A DNA stretch of 46,364 bases, filler included, from Jimgerdemannia flammicorona (taxonomy: Eukaryota): the NCBI GenBank assembly GCA_003990765.1. It is 2 parts of 2 records of this genome, joined end to end, with 100 filler letters (N's around TTAATTAATTAA, not from the genome) between each part and the next. Parts side by side here need not be neighbours in the genome. Positions count along the whole stretch, not along the records: positions 23,235 to 46,364 come from RBNJ01001155.1; 1 more part is not named here. One strand, 5' to 3'. Positions 10,726-46,364 of the stretch are shown in pieces (positions within the stretch are counted from its first letter, which is position 1; every line of letters starts with the position of its first letter). Under the pieces are notes generated by a model. It searched no databases. It was not told the DNA's origin and saw only the letters and a list, made by a program, of their open reading frames with translations. The position numbers and the translations under genes are program-made.

Positions 10726-10732
10726 GTTCTTT

Positions 10733-19303: not shown

Positions 19304-19423
19304 CTTGTCTTGAATTCTTACAGGAGTAACTCTTGTAGTCAGAGTAGTTGTTGTGGTAGTTGTTTGTTTTTTAGCTTGAAAGTGAGGGATTCATCTTGAA
19401 TCACTAGCCAATGAGTACCAAGT

Positions 19424-23134: not shown

Positions 23135-23234
23135 NNNNNNNNNNNNNNNNNNNNNNNNNNNNNNNNNNNNNNNNNNNNTTAATTAATTAANNNNNNNNNN
23201 NNNNNNNNNNNNNNNNNNNNNNNNNNNNNNNNNN
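23135..23234. other. Assembly gap with artificial six-frame-stop linker
   Basis: 44 N + TTAATTAATTAA + 44 N. Confidence 0.95.
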
Positions 23235-23933
23235 AAAAAAAAAAAAAAAAACACCATTACCATTATCATCTCTCTCCGAATACCCAAACCCAGGCACTTA
23301 AAAATAAACCACAAGCAATTGTACCTTCCTCAACTCCCACGTTACTTTCTTCGATCCTCGTAGCTTCGACCCATTTCTTTCACAACGCCTTCCGCCCTGT
23401 CCTATTGTCCGCAACTCGCACGATAGCGTGGTACACCACAGCCAAACAGACACTGGCCACAACTATCACACACCCAATTATACGACACAAGCGCCACATT
23501 TTATTCAACCCGGGCCAGTGGAACAAGATCGCGGGCAGACACTAAATCAAGGGGGATGAAATGAAACGCGAATGTAAGAGGAGATCAAGGAGGCGGATGG
23601 AAAGGCTACCTTCGGGCTACGAAATCTCTGGGGGGAGGGGGATGGAAGGGTATACGCTGTGCAAAAGATTTTTGGGATTAAGAAGGGCCATAAGTATTGC
23701 TAGGATAATGTGGTAATCGTGTGAGGGAGTGTTTGTGCGTGCATGAGTGATATATACATGAACAAGCAGGATAATCAGGCCGAAACGAATAATGTTATAC
23801 GGAAAACGGAAAAAGGAGGCGAGCGAGAAAGGAATATGTAACAAATTCCTTCAATACAACTGCAATTTTAACAAGAAGCAATCCCCTCCCCCCCGATTCA
23901 CAGCCCGGTCGACATTGTTCTAACATCCTGTAC

Positions 23934-26168
23934 CTACACATCGTCGTCATCCTCCACACTCTTCCCCGCCTTTCCAGACCCCACGACGACCTCAGGTTCT
24001 CTGCATTTGATAAACTCCACCACCATGTCCCCACAGCCACAAGACTCAAGAACCCCAACATAAAATGTACTCTGACAATCCATGGGAATTCTTCCTCGTC
24101 CAACGCCCAACTATACAGAGTCCCGCACAATGCCGGTCCGATGGCCCTCATTCCGCTAGCCATGCACTGCGCGAATCCGTTGATGGTTCCAAGAGTGCTG
24201 AGAGAAGATGCTGAATCGGAAACAAGGATCATGGAGCTGGTAAACACGATCACGCTGCACATGGTCTTGCCGGCCAGGCATACCATGAGTCCGGCCCAGA
24301 CGTAGGGGACATGGAGATGGCGCAGAAATCCCTGACTAAAGTAGAGTGGGATGTAGACGGCGAGCGCGAAGCGGAAGACGGCGAGGGTTCCCCAGCGACG
24401 CTGCAAAGGAGCAGCTGCATGACAAGAGTCATTATGCCGGCGGCGGAGAGGGAGATGCCGATGTCATTGGAGGTGAAGCCGAGACCGCCCTCGGAGGGTG
24501 GAGTTGCGGCCCAGATGGAGTAAAGCCCGTCGTACATGACGGTTTGGAAGCAGACGAGGATGTAAGCAGTAATGATAATGAGGACTGGGCGAGTCAGCAC
24601 TGAGCGGAAGGTCAGTTTGCTGGGTTTGGATTTCGGTTTGGATCGAAAAGCGGTGACAGTGATGGTGGTGGTGTTGAGTGTCGGGGTTGGGGAGGGGGGA
24701 AGGGTAGAGGACATGAATATGGATGGAGTTGAGAGGACAGGAAAGGTGTTGTATTCGGGGACGCCGGCGCCGGAGGGCGTGATTCCAGACATCATGGCCG
24801 TCGCTCTGCGACCTCGCCGCCTTCATCACTTTCATCCTCATTGTTCGAATCCCTGCTCTTCGTACCCAACGTCTCCTCCAGAAAAAAGATGCCAAACACC
24901 ACTCCAACAGTGCACAAACATGTGCCGGTGAAACATGGCAAAAAGTATGGGTTTGCCTCAAGCAAGGTCGTGATCCATCCTCTGCCGCCAAACACTGCGG
25001 GGTACTTTTCAACAGGGTGAGTGAGGAAGCCACCAAGGATGGGGCCGAAGATGGACCCTAGGCCGTACATGAGCGGAAGAAGGGAGAAGGCACGGGCGTG
25101 TTGGTTGGACGAATGATCAACTGTCAGCTCAGCGACCATGGACTTGAGAGCACCGATGTTGCCGTTCAGCAGGCCGCAAAGCGAGCGCAAGGCGAGCGCC
25201 CAGGTATATGAGTGTGATAAGCCAAAAAGGAGGATTGAAATGATCGTGCCAGTCATCCCGATGAGTATGATGGGCAACGACCTGCATATGGGTAGGTGGA
25301 TGGGTAGATGGATGGGTAGATGGATGGGTAGATGGATGGGTAGAGATGGGGATGGGTGAGTGAAAGGTATGAGGAGCTGTTTCGTTGAACAGATCATTGA
25401 GAGTCAAGGGAGAGAAACCTTACCGATTCGGTCTGATAGATATCCCATGGAAGACCTAGTTAATTGATGAGTCAAGAGGGAATTTTGGTAAGGGACGTCA
25501 GTTCCCGCTAAATCTAATTTGATAACTAAAATGATGTCTCAATTGAAGAAAATGAACCTAGCGATCTCTTCTCAAGGATTACAAATCACATTGTGACCCC
25601 CTTCTGATCCCTTGTTTATCTTTTCCATTCCACCTATACTATGATTTTGGTCGCATGATGCCACGAGATAAGTCCACCCACAACATCATTTTGGTCGTGT
25701 GATATCACGAGATAAGCATTGGTTTTGTGAATTGGGCGATGGCGAAACTCGACAAGATGTAACCGACGTAGAATCCAATCTTGTTGGGGTCATCAGTGAC
25801 GTTGTAGTCTCTCACCATCTGTGTGAAGATACATATGAGAAGGGGGAGGGGGTTATTAAACAATTAGATAGTACAAAAGCATGCCAATAAAATAAACTAA
25901 ATAAAATAAAATAAAAAAAACGTGCAAGCCGCAAGAAATACGGACAACGAGCGTTACTTACAAAGTAGACAAAGGGGAATAGGATGGTGAAGTAGACAGG
26001 TTCCTGGAATGAGGGGGTGGGTGGTTTCAGTGAACAGGCCATAGGGACGAAGGAGAGCTTGCGAAACGAAGTCACTCATGGTGGTTTATACATACAGCAA
26101 AGCGACAGACACAGAATGAACAACTGTCTCGTGGGAAAAGGTAGATGTTTTTTTCCGGCAGTTCCCAT
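23934..26168 (-). pseudogene. MFS transporter (DHA1/ZIFL-YCR023C-like), intron-containing and frameshifted
   Basis: Exons ~26168-26096, 26003-25962, 25818-~25727, ~25455-25424, ~25281-23934 with GT/AG. Motifs CRFA|EP, IGFYVG, W(G)YLSDRIGR, GLLNGNIG, GGLGF, LGTING. About six frameshifts. Confidence 0.85.
25288..25345. repeat. Intronic 12-bp minisatellite x ~5
   Basis: (atgggtagatgg)n next to the intron acceptor. Confidence 0.9.
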
Positions 26169-26493
26169 GGTTGGATTTTGGAGTGTATGTGGGTATGGAT
26201 GGCAGGGTATAGAAGACAGAAGATGTGAAGGGATCCCAAAGGGATAGCGCATTAAAGACGCATATTACTCGATTAGGCAATTACATATATATATATCATA
26301 CAATTACAGAATTCATTGTACACCCAACATCTTGTCCCCTTTCCCTTACACTCAATTATCTTCGCTATCATACAGTTTTACTCACACATTCATCATTAAA
26401 GCATAGTCATCATTACAACCACCAATAATTACAATAGTAACATATAAATACATATGTACAAAAAAAAAAAAAACTATACAAATTGCGCCGACC

Positions 26494-28035
26494 ATGACGC
26501 ACCCCTGCAACTCTTGCCAGGTCTGCCATACCGCAGGTGATGACTTCCCTGGACGACATTCTATCAGCTCAAATACGTACCCCTTATCTCATAACATGGA
26601 GGCTATCATGGCCGCCATCACAGCATATACTGAAGGGGACAATGACATTTTAACAACTCTTCTCCAACTCCATGAACATTGCAATATACTGTGACATTCA
26701 CCTGAACTCACTGCAAGCGCATCCACCAGACTACCATAGGTGGATTTCAACTGGGACACCTACATCGCCAAGCAAGACCAACTAATTGTCACTCTACACC
26801 GCCACCTCAAAAAAGCCCAAGCTCTACCTCTTCTGACCACTATCATCAACCTGGCATCTGACCCTGATTATCTCACTGACCCTGAATCTCTGGGCACTGC
26901 ACCAGTGGCGTCTGTGTCGCATCTGGCACCAATTTCAGTTTCGGGCATAGGTGTACCCACAATGCGAGTTTCAGGCATTCCTGTCTCAGATATTTTCATA
27001 CCTCAGTCACTGGAGCTTCCCACTTGGCAATCTTTATCTATAATGGTCCAGCCAGTCTTTTGGCCATCATTACCACCTGCTGCCTTTCCATTTCCAGTAT
27101 TGCCAGACCCTTCTGGTTTCCAGCACCCACCTACTGACATTCCACTTACTACCTACTCTGGCATCCCACCTCTATTTCTGGCATCCAGCTACTTTCCTTA
27201 TGTGGCAAGCTCTGTGAGACCTTCTACTACTATGACTATGCTACCCACCTCTATGGCTGCCCCGATACCCATAGGTGCAGTCCCAGGTGCATTCTTTTTT
27301 CCTTCTGCATATGATAGCCCCAACCTCACCAAGTACTTGAGTGTAAACCCCACTATGGTCTCTGCCATTCTCCACAATACTTTTCGACTATGAGATCTGG
27401 GAAAACTAGTTATTTGCTCCCCTTCGACCCTTGCTCCTCCTGATCCTCATTTTATTGAGGAGGTCAACTCTACCACCCTCACACATGTCTTACAGCCACG
27501 AGAAGTTGCCATGGTCAAGGATTTCCCCCATCTTCTTGTGCTACTTGGCCCTTTGTTACTATATTTCAGCATACTCTATGATGCATTTCCAGGCCTTACT
27601 GACCCAACAGCATTCTTTCACTATATCTCCAACCTTATCTACCTAAACAGCAATTATCAATGGGAGGCAATACTCGATTATCACATTGAGTTCCATACAT
27701 GACAGATACCTACCCCTCTCTCTCATATATCATATTTGGTATGGGCTACTCAGAATGGTGAACTTATGTCTTTGCACCTACTCTCTTGATCTCTGTGCTG
27801 TCTCACTGGGTCTGCCTCATCCATTGCTTGTTCACTGAGAATCTCTCCTCCATCACAACTACCTCGGTGCAACCAGTCTTATCAGTCATCAAATGTATGC
27901 TGTATATTTAACTATATCAATTGGAATGGTACTGTTGACCTCTCCTTAACTGGCTGTACCTACCAAAACTGTCCTTACCAACATCTATGCTCCCATTGCA
28001 CAAAACTATATGGCATATTTGAATGTACATTATAG
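26494..28035 (+). pseudogene. Ngaro ORF1 (gag-like)
   Basis: One frame through stops; Pro-rich middle, YQWEAILDYHIEFH, C-terminal Cys/His finger (CTYQNCPYQHLCSHC). Confidence 0.75.
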
Positions 28036-28149
28036 GATCCTGTGAGTAAATCAGTAGACCTCATTGTAGTTCCCCCTTCTACTCCATCAACAAGACCCCC
28101 TCTTTCTACTCCTTTAACATTACTTCCCCCTTGACCATCTAATACCTCC

Positions 28150-29720
28150 TTCTTCTTCCCTCTCACCACCCCCCTGATTTTGGCCAAAAACATCCTGGAC
28201 ATCTTCTCTCTTCCAAAAACCTCTCTTTGAGCTGATATATAGATATTGGTATTCCAGGACTTCCCTGACTACTACTTATTATCCACAATCTTACTTGCAT
28301 TATGTCAAGGTATTTATATTGGCTTCATGGGCATATACTATGCTCAAACATGTCGCAACTTACCTTCTGCACATGCCTTTCCTCAGATAATTTTAGATAA
28401 CATTACAACTGAAATTGCTGCAGGCCACATCACAGGCCCATTCTTCCACCCTCCTTTCCAAAACTTTCAGGCTTCCCTACTGGGCATGGTGCAAAGAAAG
28501 GTTCTGTCAAATAGCACTGCATTCACCACTTATTGTGGCCCTATGGCATGTCAGTCAATGATGGCATTTTACCTGACAATTTTACTCTTAAGTACACAGC
28601 CTTTGACCAGGTACTCAACATCATACAATGACTTGGTAGAGGGACCTTACTCTTCAAAATAGATCTGGTCAATGTTTTTTGATATATCTTGGTATATCCA
28701 GAAGACTGGGAACATCTTGGCTTTCATTGACACATCCTTTTCTACTTCAATCAGTTTCTCTCATTCAGCCTATGCTCATCACTATTTCTCTATAATGTGT
28801 TTGGGGAGATGCTGGAATGGCTGTTCAAGCACCATGGTCTGGAAGACATCGTCTGATATATTGATGATACACTGGGTGTCTGCCACTTCTCAGGCATCTG
28901 CTCTGCTGCAGCTCCTCCTATCAATCTGCCATACCATCAGTTTTTCAGTATGGGATGAGAAGATTGAAGGCCCCTTGATCTGTATCCCCTTTTTGGATAT
29001 TGATATTGATACCAATGACATGGAAGCATATCTTCCAGAGGGAAAAATCCAAGCCATCCTCACCATGATCTCCAGCTTCTGCAGTCATTCTAACCAAGCA
29101 ACTGTTATAAAACAGGAAATACTCTCACTCATTGATTCCCTCTCCTTTGCATGCTGCATTATTCTGTAAGGTCAACTCTTTCTCTACCACTTCATTGATA
29201 TTTTAACCTCTATCACTTACCCAGACCACTATATTAACTTATCAGCAGACTTTTTTGCTGATGGAATGGGGTTGCAATAATCACACCTTGGGAAGAAGTC
29301 ACCAATAACTGGTTTTAGACAGATGCCAGTAGCACTTTGAGCTTCACTGTCTTTTTTGATAGAACTTGGTTTGCTATCTCTTGGCCAGCAGAACTCCATT
29401 CTGAGGATATTCAATTTAAGGAATTATATGCTGTTGTGGTCCCACCACTACTTGGGGTCCATACTGGTGCTTTTGATGTATTTGCATATAGACAACCAAG
29501 CAGCAATATCATGTATTAACTCGAGTACCTCTCATAACTCCAAACTCCTCAAGCTACTATACTAACTGTTGTTTTTAGGTGCATTATATTCATTTTAGTT
29601 ACATGCATCATACATCTCCTCTCACCTCAATGTCATTGCTGATGTATTGTCCTGTCTTGATTTCTCCCACTTCCACACTCTTGCCCCTTATACAGATCAG
29701 ACCCCTACTATACCAGGCTC
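28150..29720 (+). pseudogene. Ngaro RT and RNase H
   Basis: GHITGPF..PPF, IHHLLWPYGMSVNDGI, FKIDL, YIDD ~28857, TDAS ~29318, IQFKELYAV, IDNQAA, NVIADVLS. Confidence 0.88.
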
Positions 29721-29729
29721 TCTCTCTAC

Positions 29730-30690
29730 TATGGTTTTCCACCTCTTGCTGCATTCTTCCTATGGCTCAGCCTGGCAGACTCTATACAACAGATATATTC
29801 CACCAGTTAATGCAGCTTCATCAACTTCTGTACTGCTAATAATCTCTACAACTCAGATGGTTCTCTTCTACCAGCCTCTGAACATTGTTTGATTCTATGG
29901 ATATCTACTCTGGCTCTCCAATATCTATACCCTGTTACCATCAAGATATACCTCTCTGTCATCTACTCTCTCCATATTGACATCAGTCTTCCTGACCCTC
30001 TGGATGGCTTGATTCAACTCCCCTGAGTCCTCTGGAGCATCAAATGCTAGCTCAGTGAACCTCTCTCTCAACCATGCCTCTCTATCTCTATCTCCATTTT
30101 GGTATGGATTCTTTCTTTTCTCGACCTCTCTATTGAAAACCACCTTAATTTTGCAGCAGCCATTATACTCACATATTTTGGATTCCTCTGGTCAGATGAA
30201 TTCACCTGGAGCTCTTCATTATTCAACCCTACTACCAACCTTACCTGCTCAGCTATATGGTTCATGCCCTCTATATACAAACCCTCCTATATCTCTCTGA
30301 CTATCCCTTCATCTAAAACTGATCCATTTCAAAGAGACACCACTCTCTATATTGCTTGAGTACCTACTAGTACCCTATGTACCATCTTTCTCCTCCAAGC
30401 TCTCTTTCTCTCCTTCCCTGCTCTGTCTGATTTACTACTTTTCTGATGTACTTGTGACACCCCATTTTCTTGTACTTGACTCTTATCTGGCCTACAGCCC
30501 CTCCTCACTACCATTGGGCTCTCAGAATTAATGTTTGCTGATCATAGTTTTCATATTAGAGCTGTCTCTGATGCTGCCAAAGTGGGGTTCTTAGACTATG
30601 AGATTCAAATTCTTGGACAATAGCATAGTGATACCTATCAACTATATATTTGGATGCCAAAATCCCACATACTTTACCTTACATTGGCTT
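29730..30690 (+). pseudogene. Ngaro tyrosine recombinase
   Basis: FGFLWSDEFT (FLRxGEF), SKTDPF, DHSFHIRA (GHSFRIGA), ILGQ*HSDTYQLYI (LGRWxSxAYxxYI). Confidence 0.88.
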
Positions 30691-30719
30691 TAGCATCATA
30701 TGTACCTGATACTCTCTGA

Positions 30720-31030
30720 TCATGATACAGAATTAGTTCATGATAATCTGCATAGGATGTGCTTACTAATATTTGATCCCAAGTGCAGGATTCTATGACC
30801 ATGATTAAGTCTTCACCACCATGATACGGAATTGGTCCATGATGATCTGCATAGGACATGCCTATTTCAGGCCTTATCCTTAGACTACATTAGTGCAGGA
30901 TTCTATGACCATGGTTTGGTATGGCCCACTATGATGTAGAATCAGTCCATGATAATTTGCATAGGACATACCTTATGAGGTGAGTTCCAAGACTATGGTA
31001 GTACAGAATTCTATGACTATGGTCTGGCAT
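30720..31030. repeat. Three ~100-110-bp tandem units in the Ngaro 3' region
   Basis: catgatac.gaatt.gt.catgat.atctgcatagga...gattctatgaccatg at ~30721, 30820, 30930. Confidence 0.85.
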
Positions 31031-32760: not shown

Positions 32761-34058
32761 GAGGAGCAGAAGAAGGTTGTTTATTATTATCAAGAGTACA
32801 CAGTTGTAGTATTTTGAACAATCTCATTTGTCTCCAATCTTTCATTATAGTTAACTCAATAATTATTGAGATTACTTCTCAATCTGTACTTATAACCCAT
32901 TGTCTTTCTTTCTCTAATTCTGATAATACTTCTATCTCAATCTTACAACCAAATGATCTACTGATAGCTGCAGTACATATAACTACTTTTCTCTTACTCA
33001 TATTTCTCAATTGATATATATTTGATCTTAGCTCTATATATAGAAATAGTTAGAGTATATCATATAAAGAGTAATTAGTAATTAGTAGTTTGAGAAGATA
33101 GAGGATAGAAATGAGTTATTTAGTAGAGATAAGTAGTTGCATGAGTTCTTGATTGATCTTTACTAGATATTTAGATAGAGTAGTATAGAATAGATTTATT
33201 ACTATAAGTAGAAAAGTGAAATAAAGGTTAAATTAAATGAAACTGTATAAATAATAGAGAAAAATATTTTGAATTAGATTGAAAATTATAAACTATTTAT
33301 CATTATAAGTATATTGTTTTTCTCTTTTTCTCTTAAATGATAAAATAACTATATATTGATAAAACTATCATATTCTTAATATCTAATACTAAATGCAAAT
33401 TATGTTGAACTTTGATAAAAGCTGACTATTAAACTAAAATTTAGAATAGTCCTAAGCAGGAGAAGTATACTTGTAGATGAATCTCTATTCTTTAAATTAA
33501 TCAATAGAGTTTTATATAAAAGCATTCTCACATAGTAGTGTTTTGCCACTATACTATCAAAACAGACATCTGAAGCTATAAAGATTTAATATTAATAAGT
33601 AGAGATTCAATATAGAATTTATCTAGATAAAAGAGTATTTAATAGAGTTATTCATATAGACTATTGTAAAGAAATATCTAAAATATAGATAAGAGTTAGT
33701 CATAATACATAAGTGGAGTTTATTTTCTATTAGTGAATATTTTATAGATAACTTTTTATAAGTATATTTCTATTGAAATACTAATTTTCAAAATTATATA
33801 TTGAAATAGTGACTTCAGAATGATAACATCAGTATAGGAGACAGTCTTTCCTTACAAGCCACCAGATTAGAGTATAAGAAGATTATATGGCATGACTCAC
33901 CCAGACTATAAGATGAGCAATAATGACCAACTGTGAGTTATTAGGACTATAAGACAGACATCTTGAGGAATATAAAAGAAGAATTAAGGAAATACAGTAG
34001 TAGCAACTTAATAAGACCCACTAATCCTGAAATAGCTCAAAGACTTACTACAAACAAA

Positions 34059-34883
34059 ATGCCTGCTGCTTGCTAAATCTCAAGGTCAAGGAATCATCAA
34101 GGCCCCTTAGTTCAGAAAAGAATATTCCAAGATATCTGAAGAGTTATAAGAACCTATACTACAAGGACTTCTAGTGTCAACCTAGGTACTAGTGACCCTT
34201 ATCATTATATTCTCTACTGTCATGAGATGGAAACAAGAATCACTATTGCTACTGAATACCTCCAGATGTGGCAAGAATATGAAATAAGAAATCTCCTCTA
34301 CCAGAAATTCCCTCAAACCAGCTCTTAAGGCTACAAGATACCACTCTTATAGATACATATATATGAAATAAGGACAGCCAAAAAGATTCATCAGATCTTC
34401 AGGCATACACTATGGTTGATCTCCAACTTGGAGTATACCAGAGTCTCAGACTTCAGAGATCTGTCAGCCTACTGTATCAATGTACTAGAAGCCATAGTAG
34501 CTACAGAAGTCCAGTCTACTATCACCCTCAATAGTGATGAGATAGAAGAGTTCTGGTATCCCATCCTCCAGGATAATCCAGATCAATTCCTGCAAGGATT
34601 GATCTCAGTATTCCAAGGCCCAAGCATTCAGGTTAGATCTCCCCAAGACTCCACATTTGTTCCTTATTTTGTGGAAGAGAATCTCATAGACTAGAGAGCC
34701 CCTGATCTCCTTGCTCTCCCTACTACCAAATGTGATGATGTCACTGGCAATGATGTCATCCTGCATGATATATGTGAAATGCATGATGAAGTATATGAAA
34801 CAGATGAAATATTCGCAGACCTCATCTCCTTTGAGGACAGTGATGAGGATGAAGCCCCCATGGTCCTGAACTTTCTGCTCTGA
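34059..34883 (+). pseudogene. U3-encoded ORF, copy 4
   Basis: MPAAC... to MVLNFLL*; includes track 34416..34694. Confidence 0.7.
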
Positions 34884-35515
34884 GTTCTTAGTGATACCGA
34901 ATTCTGCCAGCATCCTTTTCCTATATGACAGTTAATCCTTCCACTGATATTCTGATCTTGTGTGACTCAGAATTCTTCTAGCATCCTTTTCCTGTATTAT
35001 TGAAATTCTACCAGCACCCTGAACTTGTACAACTATCTGTACCAATACTGGAATCTATACTGGCAACTGTAGTTTTCTGTGTTCTAGTATTTTATTTGAT
35101 TATTGGAATTTATATTTAGCTTTATATCTTAGCAACTATTGAATTATATTTTGTATAAATACCCCTCTTATTTCCTTTGAAATAAAGTCAGTTCCTCTCA
35201 GTATAATACATACAATTCCTTGCAAGCAATCTAAAGAGATAATAAGACAGTTTAAAGATAAGAAGTTTGAGGACTATAAGATCTTGGAAAGGTACTTCAA
35301 TAAGAACTTGCTTATAACAAACTTGAGTTAGTCTAAGAGATATACCTTGAAGAGAATCTGATGTATTTGAAGGACTCAGCAACCACTATGTGATAACTTA
35401 GTATCTATTGGCTGGTGATTCAAGATGAATCCCTTACTTTCAAGCTAAAAAATGAACAACTACCACAACAAATACCCTGACTACAAGAGTCACCCCTGTA
35501 AGAATTTAAGATAAG

Positions 35516-38500
35516 ATAGAAATATATCTCTCTACATTCTATAGATATACTACTGAAGAGTCAATCCTGACCTTCATAGAAGACTTTGAACAATTTGCCA
35601 CTGTATGGGCTCTCAACATAGATGCACAATTGGCCCTTCTACCAGTCAGCCTTAGAGGACCTGCCAGAGACAAGTTCAATATAGCTACCATTACCAATAC
35701 TAGTATAGCCAGACTTGCCAATATGAAGACCTTCCTCAGAACTATATACTATACTGAAGAGATCAAGCAAGCTCTCAAGGATCAACTCAACACTATCTGC
35801 TAGGGACTCAGTGAAGATCCTAACTCATTCTATATCTGAATCTGCTACCAGATCTTGGCTGACAATGATGACTGCCTCAAGGAATAAATAGCTGATTCAA
35901 CCTTCCTTAAAGGAATTCACCCTGAAATTGCCCAAGCAATCTGATCTATACCAGCTGCACTGATCCTTGATCAGAAAGTGGTCTTTGTATAGAGATATTT
36001 GACTGCCAGATACTCCATCAAACATTCAATAGAGAAAATAACTGGCATCAATATGGAGCCATCAAAGCCAACCAGTATTATACCCACTATAGTTGTAAAC
36101 AGACAACTATCCCCATCTACCCCCAAGGCAGCCAAAGCTGACCCAGTAAAGGAACTTGTCAAGCAGTTTGCTAAGATGACTACACATCTTGATAATATTG
36201 TTAGAGAAGTCTGAAGCACCAACAGGAGACCAGTACAGAGATTTGCAGCTATTACAGAAGAATGCAATATCATATACTTCAGATATGGAGAAGAAGGCCA
36301 CTATGCAAAGAGTTGCATGACTGAAATAAGACATAAAGCCCAAATAAGCAATACTACCAGAACTAGAGAATAAGTCAATACAGTAGTCATTGAGGAGATT
36401 AGTGATACTGATGAAGAAGAATACTATGAAGAGTCTGAATTCTACCCTGTTACTGAAGGTACCAGAACCCAGTCCAAGCCCTATGACAAGAAGAGCAACA
36501 GTAAGCCAGTTAGAAGACCAAAGAAGACTCCAGCTATTACTATTCAAAATAAGATCCAACCTGAGGAGATTGATCAAGACATGGAGTTAGATGAAACTGC
36601 TTATCAAATTATTGAAGGCACTACTCTAGTCTCAGGAGAAAGTGAAAGCAAAAAAGAACAGAAGCTGCACAAGACCATGATCTACCAGGATGATATCTAC
36701 AAAGATCTCAAGAAACAGAAGGGCAATGCTACTTTTGGACAACTAGCCAAAGTCCCTGCCTTCAGATAGCAGTTGAGAGTAGGACTTGCAACTACTATCA
36801 AGAACCAAGAGTATAAGATCATAGAAGCTCACAATGCATAAGAAGATAATCAAGAAGATTTAGGTGAAGAATCTGAAGACCAGTACAAGACATCAGCCTA
36901 TACCCCATATTAGATTGAAGATTGTATCTTTGATGCTATTATTGATACCAGTGCTAGAGGATATCTCATGAATAAGAAGACAATTGACTGCCTAGGCTGG
37001 GACATTGAAGAGTCCACCAAGATAGTCTATATCATAGCAGATAGTACATGAGCTACCCCCCTAGGCAAGATCTGAGAAGTCTCCATCAAGATAGGAGGAG
37101 CTACCATCCCAGTAGATGTGATTGTTACAAGTACCACCAACTATGACATCCTTATTAGCAACCAATGGCTTCACAAGATCAAGGCTATCATTGACCTCAA
37201 TGTCCAGAAGATACAGATCAACTATAGAGGAAGAAAGGTATGAGTCTCTATCAATGTCCACAAAGGAGTTTTACCAGATATAGAGAAAGAAGATGAAGAG
37301 AACACAGAAGTCTTCATGCACTTGATGAATAAGAATAAGAATAAGACACCTAAGCTCACAGATGAGCAGTGATACAATAAGATTATTGATGGCTATACTC
37401 CTCAAGAAAGATATCCCATGGTACTAGAATGTACTGCTCTGAACACCTGAATAACTGCTGGTCCTGTATCAGTGAAGTCAGGAAAATCTGCCAACAAAAG
37501 CATGAGCAAGAAGCTGTTGAAGCAAAAAAGAAAGCTGAAGAAGATGACCAGCCCCCAAAGCTTCAAGCTGACAGCAATGATGAGGAGGAATAAGAACCAG
37601 ACATCACTCTCAAGGTTAAGAAGTTTCATCCCAAGGCCAAGATCTCAGAATACAAGACTGAAGAACTATAAGAATGAATCTTGCCAGCATTCAAGATGCT
37701 ACCCTCAAACCACAGACCACCACTCTGGGTACTAGAATTGGAGTCAAGTTACCAGAAAACTATGCTAGAATTATCAAGACCAGGAGCAGTCTGATCAAAA
37801 GTGAAATCTCAGTTAAAGAAAGAGTAATTGACTCTGATTACACTAGTGAGATCTTTCTCATAGTCAGGAATCACAACCCCACCACTCTATTTGAAGTTAA
37901 GAAGTATGACAGGATTGGCCAGATGCTGATTCATGAAGTCAAGAAGCCCAAGATCACTGAAGTCATTGAACTCATCAAGACCAAGAGAGGAGAACAAGGC
38001 TTTGGATCTACTAAAGAAAGAGACCAAATTCAAATAGACCAAGGAATGGCAAGAAACCTTCAATGAACTCAAGACCAGATTGATCCAAGCACCCATTCTC
38101 AGAAGACTAGATTAGAACCTAGAGTTCATCCTGCAAACAGATGCAAGTGCTATAGAACTTGGAGCAGTCCTAGCTCAGAAGAAAGATGGACATAAATATG
38201 GTATCTCCTATATAAGTCAAGGTACCCACAGAGCAGAACAGAACTACAAGTCATATAAGCTAGAATGCTTAGCAGTAGTTTGGATGGTAGATAAGTTCCA
38301 CTACTACCTGGCTAGGAAATACTTCACTATTCAAACAGACCACTCTGCTCTCACCTAGCTATTCCACACTCTGAACACCAAAGAAATATATGTCAGCTAG
38401 ATCTACAGGCTACAAGAGTATAACTGTACTATCAAACACTACTCAGGAAGAACTAATGCCAATACTGATACACTTTCAAGAATATCCTAAAACATCCCTA

Positions 38501-39761
38501 TCAAGACTTTTCAATATAAATAAGGAGCTATACTATGGATTAATCAGCTACCTTAGGCAGCAGAAGATACCCAACCACCTTGAACTCTAGACTATCACCA
38601 TTATTAACCAGACTTGGAAATAATTTAAACTAGACAACACCATACTCAGAAAAGGGGGAAAGCTCATAATACTCAAATACAAGAAGTATTAAGTAATGAA
38701 GGAAGTATACAAACAAGGATACCTAGGAGAAACTAACACATATGGCAAGATAAAAAGAATTATATAGTAGCTCAAGATGGAAGAAGATCTGTACCAATTT
38801 GTCAAAGGGTATGATAAGTGCCAAAAATAGAAACAAGATCAGTAAGACCAGGCACTCAAGTTATCAAGAATTGAGCCTATCCTCTTCCACCATATTGCAA
38901 TAGATATCATTGGACCACTACAGTAACACTATCAGAAAACTACTATATTACAGTTATTGTAGACCTCTTTACCAAATGGTTAGAAGCAGAAGCATTACAA
39001 GAAGTCAATGCTCTCTCTATAGCTGACTTCCTATACCAAGAAATCATCTGCTGCTATAAGACACTAAGACAAATTACCACAGACCATGGCACAGAATTTG
39101 TCAATGGATTCTATAAGATAATGTATTAGAAATATAAGATTCAGCATATCAAGACCACTGCATACTACCCTCAAGGAAATAGGCAGATAGAGAGAACCAA
39201 CAAGACTCTTAAGAACATCCTGGTGAAGATCTCAGATACATATGAGAATTGGGATAACTACCTCCCAACTGCCCTCTCTGTTCTATGAGATATACAGTCA
39301 CAGAGTACACACTTTACCCCAAAAGAACTACTCTTTGGAGAAGAAGATTCTGATGGAACCTCAGCTATAAATCAAGATCTAACATAGAGATAGATTGACT
39401 CAGAAATCTGGAGACTACACCAAATCAGGAAGAAAGCTGAAGATTATATTATCAAGTCACAAGTGCTGATAAGGAAGAATGCAGAAAAGAATCACAGATC
39501 CTAAAACACATCCAAATTGGAGAAAAGGTCCCACTGTATTGAAATATGGTAGAAGCCTCATGGTTATGAAAACTGGAGCCCAAATGGAAAGGACTCTTCT
39601 ATGTGCAAGATATCAAGGGAACTATCTTCTAGCTTAGAAAACTCTCAGAGACCATACTGCCTACTATGGTATACAGGAATAGACTCAAGAAGTACCATGA
39701 ATCTATACAAGAGAAGTAAAATGTAATGACCACCCACAAGGTTCTAGTCCATGAATCATAA
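35516..39761 (+). pseudogene. E2 gag-PR-dUTPase-(RT deleted)-RH-IN
   Basis: Colinear with E1; dUTPase VIDSDYTSEI..RGEQGFGST joined at ~38010 to the RT/RH connector; LQTDAS RNase H; integrase TDHGTEF. Confidence 0.92.
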
Positions 39762-40333
39762 CAGCATGTCCTGTGACTAGCAGGCAATTTGTCTAGACCA
39801 TTCTCTAAGGGATATAGTACCAGCAACTACTCATCAGTGAGACTTTTGAAGCCAGAGGAGTTCAAACCATTAACTGATTGGTCAAGATCAGAATTAGGTC
39901 CTTGCTCTATATGAAGAGAGTAACTCTTCACCATCATGCCAAAATATATAGGGAAGATGCCAGCCCATAAATACCACTTTTCAACCCCCCTGCCAGAGAT
40001 TATAGAATCAGAAAATTTTTCAAGACTGGTCCAATGAATAAGGACATTCAAGAGAAGATCCTTATTTAGGAGAAAGATGTAATGGTGACCTCAGAATTAT
40101 GACATCAGTATAGGAGACAGCCTTTCCTTGCAAGCCACCAGATTGAAGTATAAGAAGATCATATAGCATGACTCACCCAGGCTACAAGATGAGCAATGAT
40201 GACCAACTGTGAGTCATTGGGACCATAAGACAGACATCTTGAGGAATATAAAAGAAGAATTAAGGAACTACAGTAGCAGCAACTCAATAAGACCCATTAA
40301 TCTCAAAATAGCTCAAAGACTACTACAAAAAAA

Positions 40334-41154
40334 ATGCCTACTGCTTACCAAACCTCAAGATCAAGGAACCACCAAGGCCCCTCAGTCCAGAAAGGATGTT
40401 CTAAGACATCTAAAGAGTCATAAGGACCTGCACTACAAGGACTTCTAGTGTCAACCTGAATTCTGGTAACTCTTATCATTATATTCTCTACTGCTGTAAG
40501 ATGGAAACAAGAATCACCATTACTACCAAATATCTCCAGATGTAACAAGAATATGAAATAGGAAACCTCCTCTGCCAGAAATTCCCTCAAGCCAGCCCTC
40601 AAGAGCTACAAGATGCCACTTCTATGGATATATATGAAATAAGGACAGCTAAAAAGATTCATCAGATTTTCAGACATGCACTATGGTCGATCTCTAACTT
40701 GGAGTATATCAGAGTCTCAGACTTCAGGGATCTGTCAGTCTGCCATATCAATGTACTAGAAGTCATAGTAGCTATAGAAGTCCAGTTCACTATCACCCTC
40801 AATAGTGATGAGATAGAAGAGTTCTGGTATCACATCCTTTAGGACAATCTAGATTAATTCCTACAAGGATTGATCTCAGTATTCCAAGGCCCAAGTATCT
40901 AGGCCAGACCTCTCTAAGACCCTACATTTGTCTCTTATTTTGTAAAAGAGAACCTCATAGACTAGAGAGCTTCTGATCTCCTTACTCTCCCCACTGCCAA
41001 ATTTGATGATGTCACTAGTGACAACATCATCTTATATGATATATACAAAATATATGATAAAGTATGCAAAATGGACAAAACATTCCTGGACCTCATCTTC
41101 TTTGAGGACAGTGATGAGGATGAAGCCTCCATGGTTCTGAACTTTTTACTCTGA
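40334..41154 (+). pseudogene. U3-encoded ORF, copy 5
   Basis: Includes track 40624..40842; ends MVLNFLL*. Confidence 0.7.
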
Positions 41155-43365
41155 GTTCTTGGTGATACTGAATTCTGCCAGCATTCTTTTCCTATATAAC
41201 AGTTAATCCTTCTACTAGCATTCTGATCTTATATAACTCAGAATTCTTCCAGTATTCTTTTTCTGTATTATCAAAATTCTACTAGTATACTGAACTTGTA
41301 TAACCATCTATACCAATACTAGAATCTGCACTGACAACTGTAGTTTTCTGTGTTTCAGTATTTTATTTAGTTATTGGAATTTATATTTAGCTTTATATCT
41401 TAGCAACTATTGAATTATATTTTGTATAAATACCCCTCTTATTTTCTTTGAAATAAAGTCAGTTTCTCTCAGTACAATATATATAATTCCTTATAAGTAA
41501 TCTAAAGAGATAATAAGACAGTTTAAAGATAAAAAGTTTGAAGACTATAAGATCTTGAGAAGACACTTCAATAAGAACTTACTTATAACAAACTTGAGTT
41601 AGTCTAAGAGATACACCTTGAAGAGAATCTGACATATTTGAAGGACTCAGCAACTACTATATGACAATATAAAAGATTTTCTAATATTAAAGAATGATAT
41701 TATATCTCTAGAGCCTAAGTTATTTCAAATTATCTAAAAGAAGTTTCAGAAGTAGAATATTATATATTTATTTTAGATACATAAATATATTACTTTTTTA
41801 TTAAATCTATAATAAATAATCTATATATACTTGTATAATTTCTTAACTATTATAAAATAAAAATAATATCTAAAGTACTTAAATTATTATTTTTATAGTT
41901 TAATATATAGATTTTAATTATAATTATTTGGCTTTTAAGAAGCATTTAAAATAAACTTAATTTAGAACTAAATATTAAATATAATATTATAGAATTAATA
42001 TTATTAAAATTATTATTATTAATATATTATTAGTAATTATTAATTTTTTAATAAAATCTTTAAAAATAATTAAATAAATATTTTATAAGATAGTTATATA
42101 TTTTAAAGTTATATAAAAGACTAATATTTAAAATTTATTACTATCTTCTTACTAGCTTATAGTAAAAGTAATAATAATCTTTATTTTTTAAATAGTATTT
42201 ATTTGTAGCTAAATTAAACTTCAAAAATAAAATTTTTAATAATTTATTTTTAATATAAAGAATTTAATAATAAAGATAAAACTTAAGATTCAAATAAATT
42301 AGCTCTTGAGTTCTTGTTTCAATCTCTTGTTTTAAGTTTTTATTTTGAGTTATTTTTACTTATATTTTAATAAAATGATATTTAATTTTATTATACGTAA
42401 ATTTGTTGAAAAGCTATAATTTAGAAACTTCTATTAAGTATACATATATATTAAATTTAGATATTATTTTATTAAAATATGAGTAAAAATATTATATCTT
42501 GAATTACTAATATATAATATAGTATAGAATAGTTAAGATATATACTAATTAACTAAATAAATTTATAGCTTATAGTGTATTTAATTTTTGAATAAGATAA
42601 AAAGATAAATTATATAGATTATTATAATATAGCAGATATATACTAGTAAAAGTATAGTAGATTTCTTTATATTGAATACTTGATCTTCTTTGTCTTCTCA
42701 GAGTCTTTAGGTATAGAAATAGATAAGTTTGAAATATATCTGTCTACAGACTTACTAGTTTCATATCTCTTTGCTTAAACTATTTTGATTTTCTAGATAC
42801 TGAGGATATTTAGATAGGTTTGCTAACTATATAATAACTAAGTTGAGATTTGTTTTTCTATAAGTTATTTATATAGTTGTGAGATCTATATATATATATA
42901 TTGTATATCTATATAGTCTATACAATTGTGAGTTTTATATAGTTATACTTTTGTATAATTATAAAGATTATATAACTAAAAGATTGAATAACTGCTAAAC
43001 TATAATACTGTTATATTATATCAGAAATTAGATTCAGATATTACATATAATAAAATATCTATTATCTAATTATTATTACTAATTTGAATCAATATTAACA
43101 ACTTTCTCCTAAATAAGAGATTTTATCTCTGAATTGCCGTATTTAATCTTCTATACTTTGATCAATTATATATTCTTATACTGTATGGTCTGCTTAATTA
43201 TATTCTCTCAATGAGGTCTTTTCACTTGTCAGAAATCTCCTAAGACTACTCCTCAGAAATAGACCAGGGCTTGCTCATTATCTTTAAATAGTTTGTAGAT
43301 CTACTTGGTAATACATAGTGATTTGGGTGTAAGATATCTGATTCTTGGTAATCTACTCTCTTTAG

Positions 43366-44228: not shown

Positions 44229-45231
44229 TATAGTCTCTTAGACTTCTTCCTTTATTAAAACACCCATCTATCTCATATATAATATACTGAGCCCACTCCT
44301 AACCAATCCCCCTAGGGGGGACTCAGTACTTCATTGGTTAGCTATGATATGTACTTCTTGAGTTAGTTTTAGTAGATGGTAGTAGAGATAATTATACCTA
44401 ATAGTTTTTATTGCTAAAAGATAGTTTCTTTTATATTTTATACAAGATAGAGTTCTTCCCACTTGAGCTCTAGTTGTTATAACTTTGAAGCTTCTATTTT
44501 ATTCTAATATATTAGAACTTTATCTCTTATCTTGATAATCTTTAAGAACTTAGATCTTCTCTATATTATTCTATATATTATAATATCTATATCTTAATTA
44601 TATAATCTTTCACCTTATTTCTTATTTGGTGCACTCTCTATATCTTAGTGTCCAATTATTTCTATACTGTATCTCATTAGATAATAGAGTTTTTTCAGAA
44701 CTTTCTTCTCTAAACAATAATTTCTAGGAGATAAAGTAGGTACTTTGTAATTATATATCTCAGAGAGATAATACTATTAGCAGATAGTGGTCCCAATTTT
44801 TATAGTTCAAATATACCAAATCTTATACTTCTTATAGAGATACTTAAAGAGCTGATTTATAAATTTTATTTCTCTATTCATTATTACTTTCTCTGAAGTC
44901 TTAAATTAGTAGATAATTTCTCTATAGAAGAAATCAGTAATTGACTATTTATTGACTTCTTTGAGGAATCTTACTTCTATTGATTTTATAAAGAGATCTA
45001 TAATAGCAATAACATATCAGTTACCAGTCAATATCAGGATTAGGAGACTAATTATATTTATTACAATATGAGCAAATAATACTGATTCTAGATCTGCTGA
45101 CTCTAGTATTTGATTGCTTCAATTTTTGGTATTTATTATAGATCTTAACAAATTATCTGATATCTTCTACTATTCTTAACCACTATATTTTTCTTCTTAC
45201 TTTATCATAGATATTTGTTTCTTCTAGATAG
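44145..45231 (-). pseudogene. Older, very decayed Gypsy integrase of a related family
   Basis: GN*YVIAIIDLFIK, TDFFYREII, NWDHYL, ELKWEELY, LKKYI; colinear with the E1/E2 integrase. Confidence 0.8.
44167..44323 (-). mobile_element. Short poly(A) retroposon (SINE or 5'-truncated LINE) with ~16-bp TSD
   Basis: ~60-T tail; AATAAA on minus; CAGTACTTTATTGGTT (44151-44166) versus CAGTACTTCATTGGTT (44324-44339). Confidence 0.8.
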
Positions 45232-46364
45232 TGTAATAGTGACCCCAGAATGATGACATCAGCACAGGAGACAGTAATTCCTTATAAGCCACCAGATTGA
45301 AGCATAGAAAGATTATACAGCATGACTCACTCAGACTATGAGATAAGTAATGATGACCAACTATGAGTCATTGTGACCACAGTTCAGATATCTTGAGGAA
45401 TATAAAAGAAGGATCAAGGAACTGCAGTAGTAGCAACCAACAAGACTTATCAATTCTAAAATAGCTCAAAGACTTACTACAAATGAAATGCCTGCTGCTT
45501 GCCAAACCTCAAGGTCAAGAAACTACCAAGGCACCTCAGTTGAGGAAAGGATGTTCTAAGACATCAGAAGAGCCATGAGGACCTACACAAGAAGGACTCC
45601 TAGTGTCAACCTGAGTACTAGTGACCCTTATCACTATATCCTCTACTACCATGAAATGGAAACAAGGATCACCATTGCTACTGAATGCCTCTAAATGTGA
45701 CAGGAGTATGAAATAGGAAATCTCCTCTACTGAGAGTTCCTATAGGCCAGCCCTCAAGAGTTATAAGATACCACTTCCATGGATATACATGAAACAAGAA
45801 TAGCTAAGAAGATCTATCAGATCTTCAGGCATGCACCATGGTCAATTCCCAACTTAGAGTATATTAGAGTCTCAGATTTCAGAGATCTGTTAGCCCACTA
45901 TATCAATGCACTAGAAGCCAGAGTGACTATAGAAGCCCAGTCCACTATCACCCTCAATAGTGATGAAGTAGAAGACTTCTGGTATCCCATCCTCCAGGAT
46001 AACCCGGACCAATTCCTGCAAGGATTGATCTCAGTATTCCAAGGCCCAGGCATCTAGGTTAGACCTCCCCAAGACTCCACATTTGTCCCCTATTTCATGG
46101 AAGAGAATCTCATAGATTAGAGAGCCTCTGATTTCTCTGCCAAATGTGATGATATTATTAGTGATGACATCATCCCACACAACATATATGAAATGTCTGA
46201 TCTATATGATGATGACAAGACAGATGAAATATTTGCAGACCTTATCTCCTTTGAAGACATCCTGACCTCAGATGAGAATGAAGCCTCTATGGTCTTGAAC
46301 ATTCTGCTCTAAAGTTCTTTAGTTATACTGAATTATACCAGCACTCTTTTCCTTTTTTTTTTTT
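45232..46364 (+). mobile_element. Gypsy-family LTR (solo or 5'), inserted in the old integrase, running off the right edge
   Basis: TGTAATAGTGACCCC start with no PPT upstream; a T run begins at ~46353. Confidence 0.88.
45488..46312 (+). pseudogene. U3-encoded ORF, copy 6 (274 aa, no frameshift)
   Basis: 825 nt from ATG to TAA in one frame; internal stops fall at codons read as Gln/Trp/Arg in other copies; acidic C-terminus. Confidence 0.8.

Follow-up and report, generated by a model that had tools for sequence, protein, structure and literature searches.

A conserved accessory gene probably lies wholly within the long terminal repeats of a Ty3/gypsy retrotransposon family in Jimgerdemannia flammicorona

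Results

The six LTR copies and their host elements

The ~1.6-kb LTRs of a Ty3/gypsy family in Jimgerdemannia flammicorona probably (we put the probability at about 0.8) carry, wholly within them, an accessory gene that has evolved under selection; it would belong to a new, narrowly distributed family and be open in active relatives, and the six copies in the window, by which we mean the whole stretch of 46,364 nucleotides analysed here, would have been killed after insertion. Every LTR copy contains the same sense frame of ~274 codons, which is wholly within the LTR and starts ~250 nt inside it. A reading of this DNA from sequence alone (hereafter the sequence-only reading) had reported one sense ORF in six LTR copies, and our analysis confirmed this, with ORF starts identical to those that it had given. 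The coordinates of all of the features are listed in Table 1.

Table 1. Coordinates of the LTRs, elements, reading frames and putative control regions in the window
Feature	Coordinates	Strand	Remarks
Solo LTR	9669-11266	+	TSD CTAT
Ty3/gypsy element A, full	12154-20983	-	TSD ATAA; 3' LTR 12154-13717, 5' LTR 19424-20983
Ty3/gypsy element B, full	33802-41666	+	TSD ATAT; 5' LTR 33802-35395, 3' LTR 40078-41666
Sixth LTR, cut by window end	45232-46364	+	First 1,133 bases; contains ORF 45488-46312
LTR ORF, copy flagged in the sequence-only reading	45488-46312	+	274 codons + stop; 8 premature stops; no frameshift
LTR ORF, solo LTR	9911-10725	+	2 premature stops in aligned frame; frame lost at a 10-nt deletion near 10405
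LTR ORF, element A 3' LTR	12662-13461	-	6 premature stops; 3 frameshifting indels
LTR ORF, element A 5' LTR	19927-20723	-	7 premature stops; 1-nt deletion
LTR ORF, element B 5' LTR	34059-34883	+	4 premature stops
LTR ORF, element B 3' LTR	40334-41154	+	8 premature stops; 1-nt deletion
Upstream TATA-like box ATATAAAA	33970-33977	+	88 nt before ORF ATG, element B 5' LTR; candidate ORF promoter
Downstream TATAAATA box and AATAAA 26-27 nt later	35154-35186	+	About 210 nt before LTR end
Variable tandem repeat	10732-10929	+	35-nt unit, 5.7 copies in solo LTR; between ORF stop and downstream TATA box

When positions 45201-46364 were compared with the window by blastn, the five other copies were recovered at 79-80% identity. 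The boundaries of the LTRs were set from their TG..CA ends and matching 4-bp target-site duplications (TSDs), and the structure of the elements was derived from a self-comparison of the window. Two full Ty3/gypsy elements contribute four of the six copies, one for each LTR, and the others are a solo LTR and a copy cut by the window end; the two copies with ORF starts at 13461 and 20723 have minus-strand orientation. The solo LTR interrupts one arm of a repeat that is duplicated in inverted orientation, and the other arm presents an uninterrupted paralogous empty site at ~3117-3125.

The elements have the direct LTRs with TG..CA ends and short flanking TSDs that are expected of Ty3/gypsy, together with a gag zinc knuckle, RT before integrase, a PBS after the 5' LTR and a polypurine tract before the 3' LTR. 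In element A, Pfam matches on the minus strand were obtained for zf-CCHC (18075-18578), dUTPase (16690-17154) and RVT_1 (15712-16395), while Integrase_H2C2 and rve were found on a metagenome contig, L001, which aligns to 38344-40453 and 15456-13342 of the window. In element B, the PBS region comes directly after 35395, and a polypurine run directly precedes the LTR at 40078. The polypurine tract ahead of the LTR reads AGGAGGAAGA, and the letters TGGTGCCC... begin 3-4 nt past the LTR end. No chromodomain was found at the integrase C-terminus, since the end of the 462-aa integrase of L001 matched only Integrase_H2C2 and rve above the cut-offs. By these sequence features, the family is a non-chromoviral, dUTPase-bearing Ty3/gypsy lineage. 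Pfam searches with the other ORFs of the window gave nothing except MFS_1, and no Rfam family was found in the window, which also has a short-intron MFS gene with 53% GC; an Atlas comparison of the MFS fragment returned a mixture of eukaryotic and bacterial clusters. This gene, the TE-specific hypermutation, the presence of relatives in soil metagenomes and the occurrence of dUTPase-bearing gypsy elements in fungi (PMC2864245) agree best with a fungal host, although bdelloid rotifers also have dUTPase elements (PMC5408684). When four contig-only sequencing runs were compared with 38300-41800, many short contigs that were 80-99% alike were obtained, and un-decayed PBS letters in these runs remained a loose end behind 41667. 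Contig cover over 40991-41341 was thin, a blank that carries no evidential weight.

Decay of the reading frame

None of the six ORF copies in the window is intact; the solo LTR has the longest uninterrupted stretch, 176 aa at 9911-10441. Frameshifting indels occur in five of the six copies; in that at 34059-34883, a 1-nt deletion and a 4-nt insertion put about 8 codons out of frame. There are 35 premature stops in total, distributed over 20 codon positions, and at every one of these positions one or more of the other copies have a sense codon. The sequence-only reading had argued that the stops differ between copies and are single transitions, and that the ancestor was open. The open ancestor is upheld, but 9 of the 20 stop positions are common to 2-4 copies, and single transitions from CAA, CAG or TGG account for 18 positions, the remaining two (codons 27 and 192) being an arginine codon in the intact homologues. 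The shared frame holds 4-9 stops per copy vs. 10-30 in the other five frames, and mononucleotide shuffles of the last copy gave 15.8 +/- 3.7 stops, with 9 or fewer in 3.9% of 2000. A tblastn search of the window with four family members matched the six LTR sites and no other place, and the copy at 45488-46312 matched the homologue P0003 at E 9e-112.

From L001 to the window copies, C>T change reached 57-58% at CpG, 29-30% at CpA, 20-25% at CpC and 5-8% at CpT, and CpG o/e was 0.00-0.01 in the elements vs. 0.81 in the neighbouring MFS gene. Judged from these patterns, all six ORF copies in the window are dead through TE-specific C>T hypermutation. Hypermutation targeted at TEs probably killed the six copies after insertion, and active relatives probably keep the ORF open. 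Being wholly inside the LTR, the ORF occurs in the solo LTR too; the earlier suggestion that it survives in solo LTRs is correct in this physical sense, but the copy found here is dead, with its 10-nt frameshift and two stops.

Intact homologues and selective constraint

Intact homologues of 271-342 aa were found among metagenome proteins, and they fall into four subfamilies with identities down to ~29%. Of 189 candidates in a first search, 6 proteins reached E<=0.01; 5 reached E<=0.001 in a profile search of 1,835,955,588 representatives, and a second profile search returned 12 among 8000 candidates. Full-length open members are P0003 (271 aa), P0010 and P0012 (323 aa), P0020 (342 aa) and P0022 (325 aa), and the identities of the last four to P0003 are 55%, 54%, 41% and 29%, respectively. 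P0020 is encoded on a contig of 4,848 nt and P0028, which is also divergent, on one of 19,434 nt. The relatives found are unannotated metagenome calls throughout, with no named genome record among them. A search for fused forms of 600-2000 aa scored none among 8000 candidates, which is weak evidence. An MP(A/P) start is kept in all four subfamilies and a ...LNF.L end in three of them, and the residue pattern is conserved. With a base composition like that of L001, each of these frames would stay open by chance with a probability of 9e-7 to 2e-8. A closed consensus had been named in the sequence-only reading as a result that would speak against a gene; the natural intact homologues are, on the contrary, open.

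A scan of metagenome DNA revealed one locus, L001, which shares 83-84% identity with elements A and B. Its open 462-aa integrase frame ends at 1420, 316 nt ahead of the LTR, with a polypurine run in between. The LTR starts with TGTAATGG at 1737 and continues with a TATA-like TATAAAGG at 1905 and the ATG of the ORF at 1989; this ATG has an A at -3, is the first after the TATA box and lies 569 nt after the pol stop, and 40 codons are open to the contig end. The LTR context was seen for the window subfamily and L001, while the three divergent subfamilies are known as metagenome-predicted proteins alone. Neither the ORF profile nor the integrase had a match in viral contigs, and genome contigs yielded a 15-residue chance match (L002) and nothing else.

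Of the 10 lineage-level indels in the ORF, 9 had a length divisible by three, vs. 0 of 7 among indels private to one LTR of a pair (Fisher p=4e-4) and 1 of 15 among lineage-level indels elsewhere in the LTR (p=5e-5); these events were identified manually in a single MAFFT alignment, and triplet repeats in the acidic tail may slip in threes without selection. Substitutions that predate insertion were distributed over codon positions 1:2:3 as 15:15:33 (binomial p=0.0014) and those that postdate it as 86:50:83, and both the codon-position contingency test (p=0.056) and a McDonald-Kreitman-like table (17:17 vs. 116:59, p=0.08) were marginal. In the window copies, omega was 0.24-0.38 between lineages vs. 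0.35-0.47 in the neutral within-element LTR pairs, an order that was reversed in both shifted frames. The constraint for which the sequence-only reading had proposed a dN/dS check was thus seen in the indel phase and weakly in the substitutions of the window copies. We regard it as very likely that the LTR ORF is a real, selected gene inside the LTR.

Features of the encoded protein

The acidic tail described earlier was confirmed, with a pI of ~4.05-4.12 in the intact homologues; it is variable and bears acidic-hydrophobic motifs of the DLIxF type. The N-terminal 45 aa are arginine-rich, with a pI of 11-12 in 3/4 full-length members. No membrane segment was found in 4/4 full-length members (maximum 19-residue Kyte-Doolittle value 0.64-1.07), which have 0 to 6 cysteines each. 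The AF2 model was mostly helical but of low confidence (pLDDT 52.6 and pTM 0.45 with 16 sequences; pLDDT 34.5 with 8 sequences). The protein is predicted to be soluble, with a basic N-terminus, a helical core and an acidic tail.

The view that the protein resembles no Gag, Pol or Env domain was borne out. Pfam-A gave no family at E<=1 for three read-throughs of the window copies, and the best E value among 16 family members was 0.088, with no credible match; hhalign against the Gag of the element itself gave a probability of 0.1%, indicating that the two are unrelated. Neither Pfam nor the PDB sequences (no match at E<=10) revealed a match to a described LTR-element domain, and PHROGs and NCBIfam gave no match. 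With the low-confidence model as the query, Foldseek found nothing in the PDB at E<=0.001, and the best result of the VIA wide fold search (Z 5.1) fell on a single long helix and was uninformative; the best Atlas score, 0.83, was below the stated noise level. By these comparisons, the protein family is new, representing a conserved gene in the LTR of a plain gag-pol retrotransposon.

The layout alone, with an arginine-rich N-terminus and an acidic tail bearing DLIxF-type motifs, fits the acidic-activator class. The charge layout and motifs hint at a trans-activator or anti-silencing role, to which we give a low probability; the product would then be a soluble, probably nuclear regulator of the element, acting as a transcriptional activator or as a counter-silencing factor.

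Anatomy of the LTR

The ORF lies inside the LTR, where a placement in U3, as for Sag, is plausible, and the LTR contains two candidate TATA boxes. The upstream one, ATATAAAAG, is conserved at 88 nt before the ATG and was missing from the sequence-only reading. It is present in 6/6 copies, at 9823, 13550 (minus strand), 20812 (minus strand), 33970, 40246 and 45400 (45400-45407), and L001 has its TATA-like letters there. The downstream TATAAATA box was found in 5/5 copies that reach it, at 11028, 12391 (minus strand), 19656 (minus strand), 35154 and 41425, and together with the AATAAA it is a candidate genomic promoter and poly(A) signal. Conservation between subfamilies is lowest in the tandem-repeat stretch, which resembles a U3 enhancer region, whereas the best conserved part of the LTR extends from 100 nt before the downstream TATA box to the LTR end (0.89 identity between lineages).

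As the gene lies inside the LTR, past the polypurine tract, reverse transcription places a copy at either end of the element, and solo LTRs retain the gene. The upstream TATA box allows two readings, one in which it is the ORF's own promoter and one with a long R. We favour the former, in which the ORF probably lies in U3 with its own promoter. The genomic promoter would then be the downstream TATAAATA box, with the AATAAA 26-27 nt on and a short R. The ORF would have its own ~1.2-kb mRNA, running from the upstream TATA box to the poly(A) site of the LTR; a complete expression unit would then be present in any LTR, even a solo one.

Alternative explanations

In the other reading of the LTR, the upstream TATA box is the sole promoter, U3 is ~200 nt long and the ORF lies in a ~1.2-kb R, where it comes first among the cistrons of the genomic RNA; polyadenylation in the 5' LTR would yield the ORF mRNA, and read-through of that site would yield the genome. 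We consider this anatomy unlikely and the division of transcripts that goes with it no less so, even though the TATA box 88 nt before the ATG is kept in 6/6 window copies and L001 and the ORF starts at the first ATG after it, with an A at -3. Yeast-type (fungal) poly(A) signals combine an efficiency element with a positioning element, and TATAAATA followed by AATAAA 26-27 nt on would fit these as well, which would put the ORF in R. However, such an anatomy would require 1.4-kb strong-stop DNA and bypass of the 5' LTR poly(A) site, we know of no ~1.2-kb R of such a kind, and the tandem repeats before the downstream TATA box and its AATAAA spacing agree with the usual U3-enhancer/TATA/short-R layout.

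Other explanations concern the nature of the gene. Least of all do we expect an Env-like or Sag-like membrane or secreted protein; the position downstream of pol and within the LTR recalls MMTV sag, as outlined in an excerpt of PMC2664473, but there is no hydrophobic segment in 4/4 full-length members, cysteines range from 0 to 6 in each, no Pfam match was obtained at E<=1, and the predicted fold is helical and soluble. An improbable scenario, though less so, is that a transduced or exapted piece of a host gene, or a gene of another element, is carried as a passenger with no role in the element and is conserved by its youth or its original host function. LTR retrotransposons do capture varied extra ORFs, such as the bdelloid ORF3s (PMC5408684, in part), and the family is narrowly distributed. 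Against this, no relative outside the family was found among 1.84 billion representatives, in Pfam or in PDB sequences, tblastn with four members reached the six LTR sites of the window alone, and the retention of frame and start in four subfamilies, with identities as low as 29%, points to a long residence under selection. It is very improbable that there is no functional gene at all and that the frame is open by chance or because constraint on a promoter or enhancer in the DNA, or on a different frame, keeps it so indirectly. One decayed copy taken by itself differs only modestly from its shuffles (3.9% at 9 or fewer stops) and the substitution tests in the window are marginal, but the 271-342 codons that stay open in four diverged subfamilies (with a chance of 1e-6 to 2e-8 for each frame), the closure of all five other frames, the indel phase (9/10 in the ORF vs. 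0/7 and 1/15) and the conservation of the residue pattern and of both protein ends speak for a gene.

Discussion

Comparison with other genes in or near LTRs

Sag is a membrane glycoprotein, whereas the LTR protein has no hydrophobic segment and no sequence match in Pfam, which presumably includes a Sag model. Foamy virus Tas is a DNA-binding activator that has an acidic activation domain and is expressed from an internal promoter, and by analogy the gypsy ORF may have a Tas-type layout, with its own promoter and an acidic tail. HIV/SIV nef and foamy virus tas/bet likewise have regulatory or accessory functions and extend from the 3' end into the LTR; they overlap it partly, whereas the gypsy ORF is entirely inside. 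No likeness to Nef or Bel-Tas was found in Pfam, in PDB sequences or by Foldseek (E<=0.001), the fold query being a low-confidence model with which a kinship of fold is possible.

MMTV sag is a superantigen ORF inside the U3 of a 1.3-kb betaretroviral LTR, and nef and a bovine foamy virus ORF are counted among LTR ORFs in an excerpt of PMC2664473. As far as that excerpt goes, MMTV sag and the gene described here are both long sense ORFs wholly in an unusually long LTR, past pol and the polypurine tract and duplicated at the ends (PMC2664473). However, the carrier here is a Ty3/gypsy retrotransposon without env and not a retrovirus, and the ORF differs from MMTV sag in having its own TATA box inside the LTR. 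An Env-like ORF3 of the errantivirus or Athila type was considered and rejected, as there is no membrane segment and the ORF lies ~250 nt inside the LTR and not between pol and the 3' LTR.

Lineage-specific genes have also been added to Ty3/gypsy-like elements in the case of the bdelloid Vesta, Juno and TelKA ORF3s (PMC5408684) and the extra ORFs of plant Ogre elements (PMC6431247), and the ORF3-bearing bdelloid families carry dUTPase as well (PMC5408684), in the portions of these sources consulted. These ORFs are, however, internal: pol (or gag) precedes them, the LTR follows, and solo-LTR formation removes them, whereas the gypsy ORF is inside the LTR, and the LTR protein is without GDSL, DEDDy, TM or env features. 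Among fungi, PosPlaTy3 of Postia placenta, elements of Phanerochaete and Tmt1 of Tuber likewise combine gypsy with a dUTPase, which lies in some of them between PR and RT, and the excerpt of PMC2864245 that describes these dUTPase elements makes no mention of an LTR-borne ORF. Tmt1 and other named fungal elements are chromoviruses according to part of PMC12581995, whereas the integrase here ends without a chromodomain. An open-access phrase search found retroviral cases alone and no LTR retrotransposon with a sense gene in its LTR; a description elsewhere is possible.

Implications

LTRs are usually regarded as purely regulatory DNA, and accessory genes in LTRs are textbook knowledge for a few retroviruses (sag, nef). 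The present finding would mean that solo LTRs, commonly counted as dead scars, can stay coding units, that TE masking hides an entire protein family from annotation and that Metaviridae may have acquired 'complex' regulation independently of retroviruses. One small soluble protein and one LTR promoter would also make a clean, testable system. A bolder and doubtful proposal is that each LTR would be a self-contained gene, with a TATA box, an ORF of 271-342 aa and a poly(A) site, and that hundreds of LTRs, even solo ones, could express a trans-acting nuclear regulator. If this were true, the regulator would act on the promoter of its own family or against silencing by the host, and it would have evolved independently as the retrotransposon equivalent of the regulatory genes of complex retroviruses (Tas/Tax-like), with the host answering by TE-targeted C>T hypermutation.

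The LTR ORF and its decay

The sequence-only reading held that the ~1.6-kb gypsy LTRs share one sense ORF of ~274 codons, and that its stops differ between copies and are single transitions. The same sense frame was present in all six LTRs, starting where that reading had placed it, and none of the six copies in the window is intact. In the aligned frame, 35 premature stops (2, 6, 7, 4, 8 and 8 per copy) occupy 20 codon positions, at every one of which some other copy keeps a sense codon, and five of the six copies carry frameshifting indels; the window copies are long dead. The shared frame contains 4-9 stops per copy versus 10-30 in the five other frames. Single transitions (C>T or G>A of CAA, CAG or TGG) explain 18 of the 20 positions; the other two coincide with arginine codons in the intact homologues. 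Stops do not always differ between copies: 2-4 copies share one at nine of the positions, a sign of recurrent mutation at hot spots. An out-of-frame ATG found 5 nt 5' of the ORF start in four of the six copies (45483-45485 and the same site) is a C>T decay product and not a gene feature, because L001, a metagenome contig from a relative of elements A and B, reads ACG there.

L001, which is 83-84% identical and far less decayed, served as the reference for measuring decay of the window elements. C -> T changes had reached 57-58% of CpG, 29-30% of CpA and 20-25% of CpC sites, falling to 5-8% at CpT, and reverse changes amounted to 0-8%. The elements had a CpG observed/expected of 0.00-0.01, compared with 0.54 for L001 and 0.81 for a neighbouring MFS transporter gene. 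This profile is that of transposon-targeted hypermutation, methylation-driven or RIP-like, and it accounts for the C, H, Y or stop codons found here in place of the arginines of the intact proteins. It is specific to transposons, because the MFS gene stands as an island among transposons at 0.00-0.30. The three frame pieces of that gene suggest short introns, and its product contains an HLPI x4 peptide repeat. Another decayed repeat with long broken frames (CpG observed/expected 0.13) had no match in Pfam; one piece of it carries the motif '...GHITGPF..PPF...LLGMV.RK', which may be one of those of tyrosine-recombinase-type fungal elements.

The host elements

A blastn self-comparison found the ~1.6-kb repeat six times, and LTR boundaries were defined by TG..CA ends and matching 4-bp target-site duplications (TSDs). 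An unclassified AT-rich repeat without a match in a Pfam search occurs as an inverted pair (~80% identical), and the solo LTR interrupts its second copy; because the first copy keeps the uninterrupted empty site (~3117-3125), the insertion point and the 4-bp duplication are exact. The LTR pairs within elements are only 86-87% identical, and therefore both full elements are old.

Features of the window
Feature	Position	Strand	Remarks
AT-rich repeat, first copy	2658-6174		
AT-rich repeat, second copy	6618-11734		
Solo LTR	9669-11266		TSD CTAT
Element A	12154-20983	-	TSD ATAA; LTRs 12154-13717 and 19424-20983
dUTPase, element A	16690-17154	-	
tRNA-Lys(UUU) call	22342-22432		91 nt
N runs	23135-23178, 23191-23234		at join between two records
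MFS transporter host gene	23795-25403	-	apparently intact; three frame pieces; 53% GC
Decayed repeat	26400-31000	+	
Element B	33802-41666	+	TSD ATAT; LTRs 33802-35395 and 40078-41666
dUTPase, element B	37662-38066	+	
Inverted pol-region fragment	44351-44766	-	66% identical to 39282-39695
Sixth LTR	from 45232		1,133 bases before window end cuts it
Reported ORF copy	45488-46312	+	
12-base T run	46353-46364		closes window; sixth LTR diverges there from relatives
Conserved ATATAAAAG box	offset ~160-180 from LTR start		ATG 88 nt downstream
Variable region with tandem repeats	after ORF		35-nt unit, 5.7 copies in solo LTR
Conserved TATAAATA box	after variable repeats		AATAAA 26-27 nt later, then ~210 nt to LTR end

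The internal regions encode gag zf-CCHC, dUTPase and RVT_1 (Pfam), and Integrase_H2C2 and rve were assigned through the aligned contig L001 (Pfam); the domain order is that of gypsy. A Pfam domain check that included the L001 integrase revealed no chromodomain, and the membership tests class the element as non-chromoviral Ty3/gypsy. Its undecayed primer-binding region, TGGTGCCCATTGGCTGG, begins 3-4 nt past the LTR end (L001, loose ends behind 41667). The dUTPase domain (E 3e-15 in the element A copy, Pfam) lies in pol, upstream of RT. Just upstream of the sixth LTR, an inverted pol-region fragment is the remnant of a more distant relative in the same element group. Passages of published work report gypsy elements with dUTPase in some fungi (PMC2864245) and dUTPase-bearing elements in bdelloid rotifers (PMC5408684).

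Intact homologues and the place of the gene

The host was taken to be most probably a soil fungus, perhaps an animal, and for this reason natural intact homologues were used to judge the open frame, in place of a consensus or reverted sequence. With an X-read-through of the reported copy as query, 6 of 189 candidates scored as homologous proteins (E 2e-111 to 1e-32); all 1.84 billion cluster representatives, searched with a profile, gave 5 at E<=0.001, and a second profile search gave 12 among 8000 candidates. They fall into four subfamilies, with full-length members of 271, 323, 342 and 325 aa, the last three being 55%, 41% and 29% identical to the first (P0003, a metagenome protein). An N-terminal MP(A/P) is common to the four subfamilies, three of which end in an acidic run followed by ...LNF.L. 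Under the L001 composition, the chance probability of frames so long staying open is 9e-7 to 2e-8 each. A longer fused form was not found by search, which is weak evidence.

In L001, the integrase frame, open over 462 aa, ends at 1420 and is followed by a polypurine run, AGGAGGAAGA, and by the LTR start at 1737. The ORF ATG, with A at -3, comes at 1989, after a TATAAAGG box at 1905; no ATG occurs between them, and 40 open codons follow up to the contig end. L001 holds the gene in its place within an undecayed element.

Selective constraint on the ORF

The neutral control consisted of the differences that separate an element's two LTRs, which post-date insertion; those common to both LTRs are older than it. 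Of 10 indels that distinguish lineages within the ORF, 9 had lengths divisible by three, the exception being a 10-nt deletion in the solo copy, compared with 0 of 7 indels confined to a single LTR of a pair (Fisher p 4e-4) and 1 of 15 lineage-level indels in the non-ORF LTR (Fisher p 5e-5); these events were hand-called on a single MAFFT alignment, and the acidic tail has triplet repeats, where slippage by threes needs no selection. Counts at codon positions 1:2:3 were 15:15:33 for pre-insertion substitutions (p=0.0014 vs one third) and 86:50:83 for post-insertion substitutions. Two weaker tests gave p=0.056 (contingency of fixed vs private substitutions by codon position) and p=0.08 (N:S 17:17 vs 116:59). 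Nei-Gojobori omega was 0.24-0.38 between lineages versus 0.35-0.47 in the neutral LTR pairs, a modest gap whose order flips in shifted frames. The window itself records constraint on the ORF.

The encoded protein

The protein had no matches in Pfam, PHROGs, NCBIfam or PDB sequences, a direct comparison with the Gag of the element showed no kinship, and it has no membrane segment. Membership tests placed it outside the Sag, Nef, Bel and Env families. The first 45 residues are arginine-rich (pI 11-12 in three of four full-length members), and the conserved core, residues ~45-215, is predicted to be helical. The strongly acidic tail already noticed from the sequence was confirmed (pI ~4.05-4.12, variable length), with acidic-hydrophobic motifs of the DD[IV][IV]..D[IV]I and DLIxF types. 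The AlphaFold model was weak (pLDDT 52.6 with 16 sequences) and fold searches with it gave only generic long-helix matches, so the proposed function, a trans-activator or anti-silencing protein, would be read from the layout alone.

LTR anatomy and possible expression

Between lineages, the best conserved part of the LTR starts 100 nt upstream of the second TATA box and runs to the LTR end (0.89); conservation is intermediate in the ORF core and 5' part (0.82-0.85) and lowest in the ORF tail and spacer (0.68-0.83). If the LTR follows the usual layout of repeats, TATA and a short R with the poly(A) signal at or before the start site, the ORF would lie in U3, as the sequence-only reading proposed; we infer this placement. 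The upstream TATA box is then a candidate promoter of the ORF's own, from which any LTR could yield a ~1.2-kb mRNA. Instead of U3 placement, there may be a single upstream promoter with a 1.2-kb R.

Long sense ORFs inside LTRs are known from MMTV (sag), primate lentiviruses (nef) and a bovine foamy virus, according to passages of PMC2664473. The extra ORFs of LTR retrotransposons described in parts of two further papers, the bdelloid ORF3s (PMC5408684) and that of Ogre (PMC6431247), lie in the internal region. Phrase searches of open-access text turned up no case of a conserved sense gene within the LTRs of any LTR retrotransposon, which is no proof of absence. The earlier observation is correct, and the intact homologues, the placement in L001 and the indel phase uphold the core of its interpretation: the LTR ORF is a real gene, an uncharacterised accessory gene borne by the LTR.
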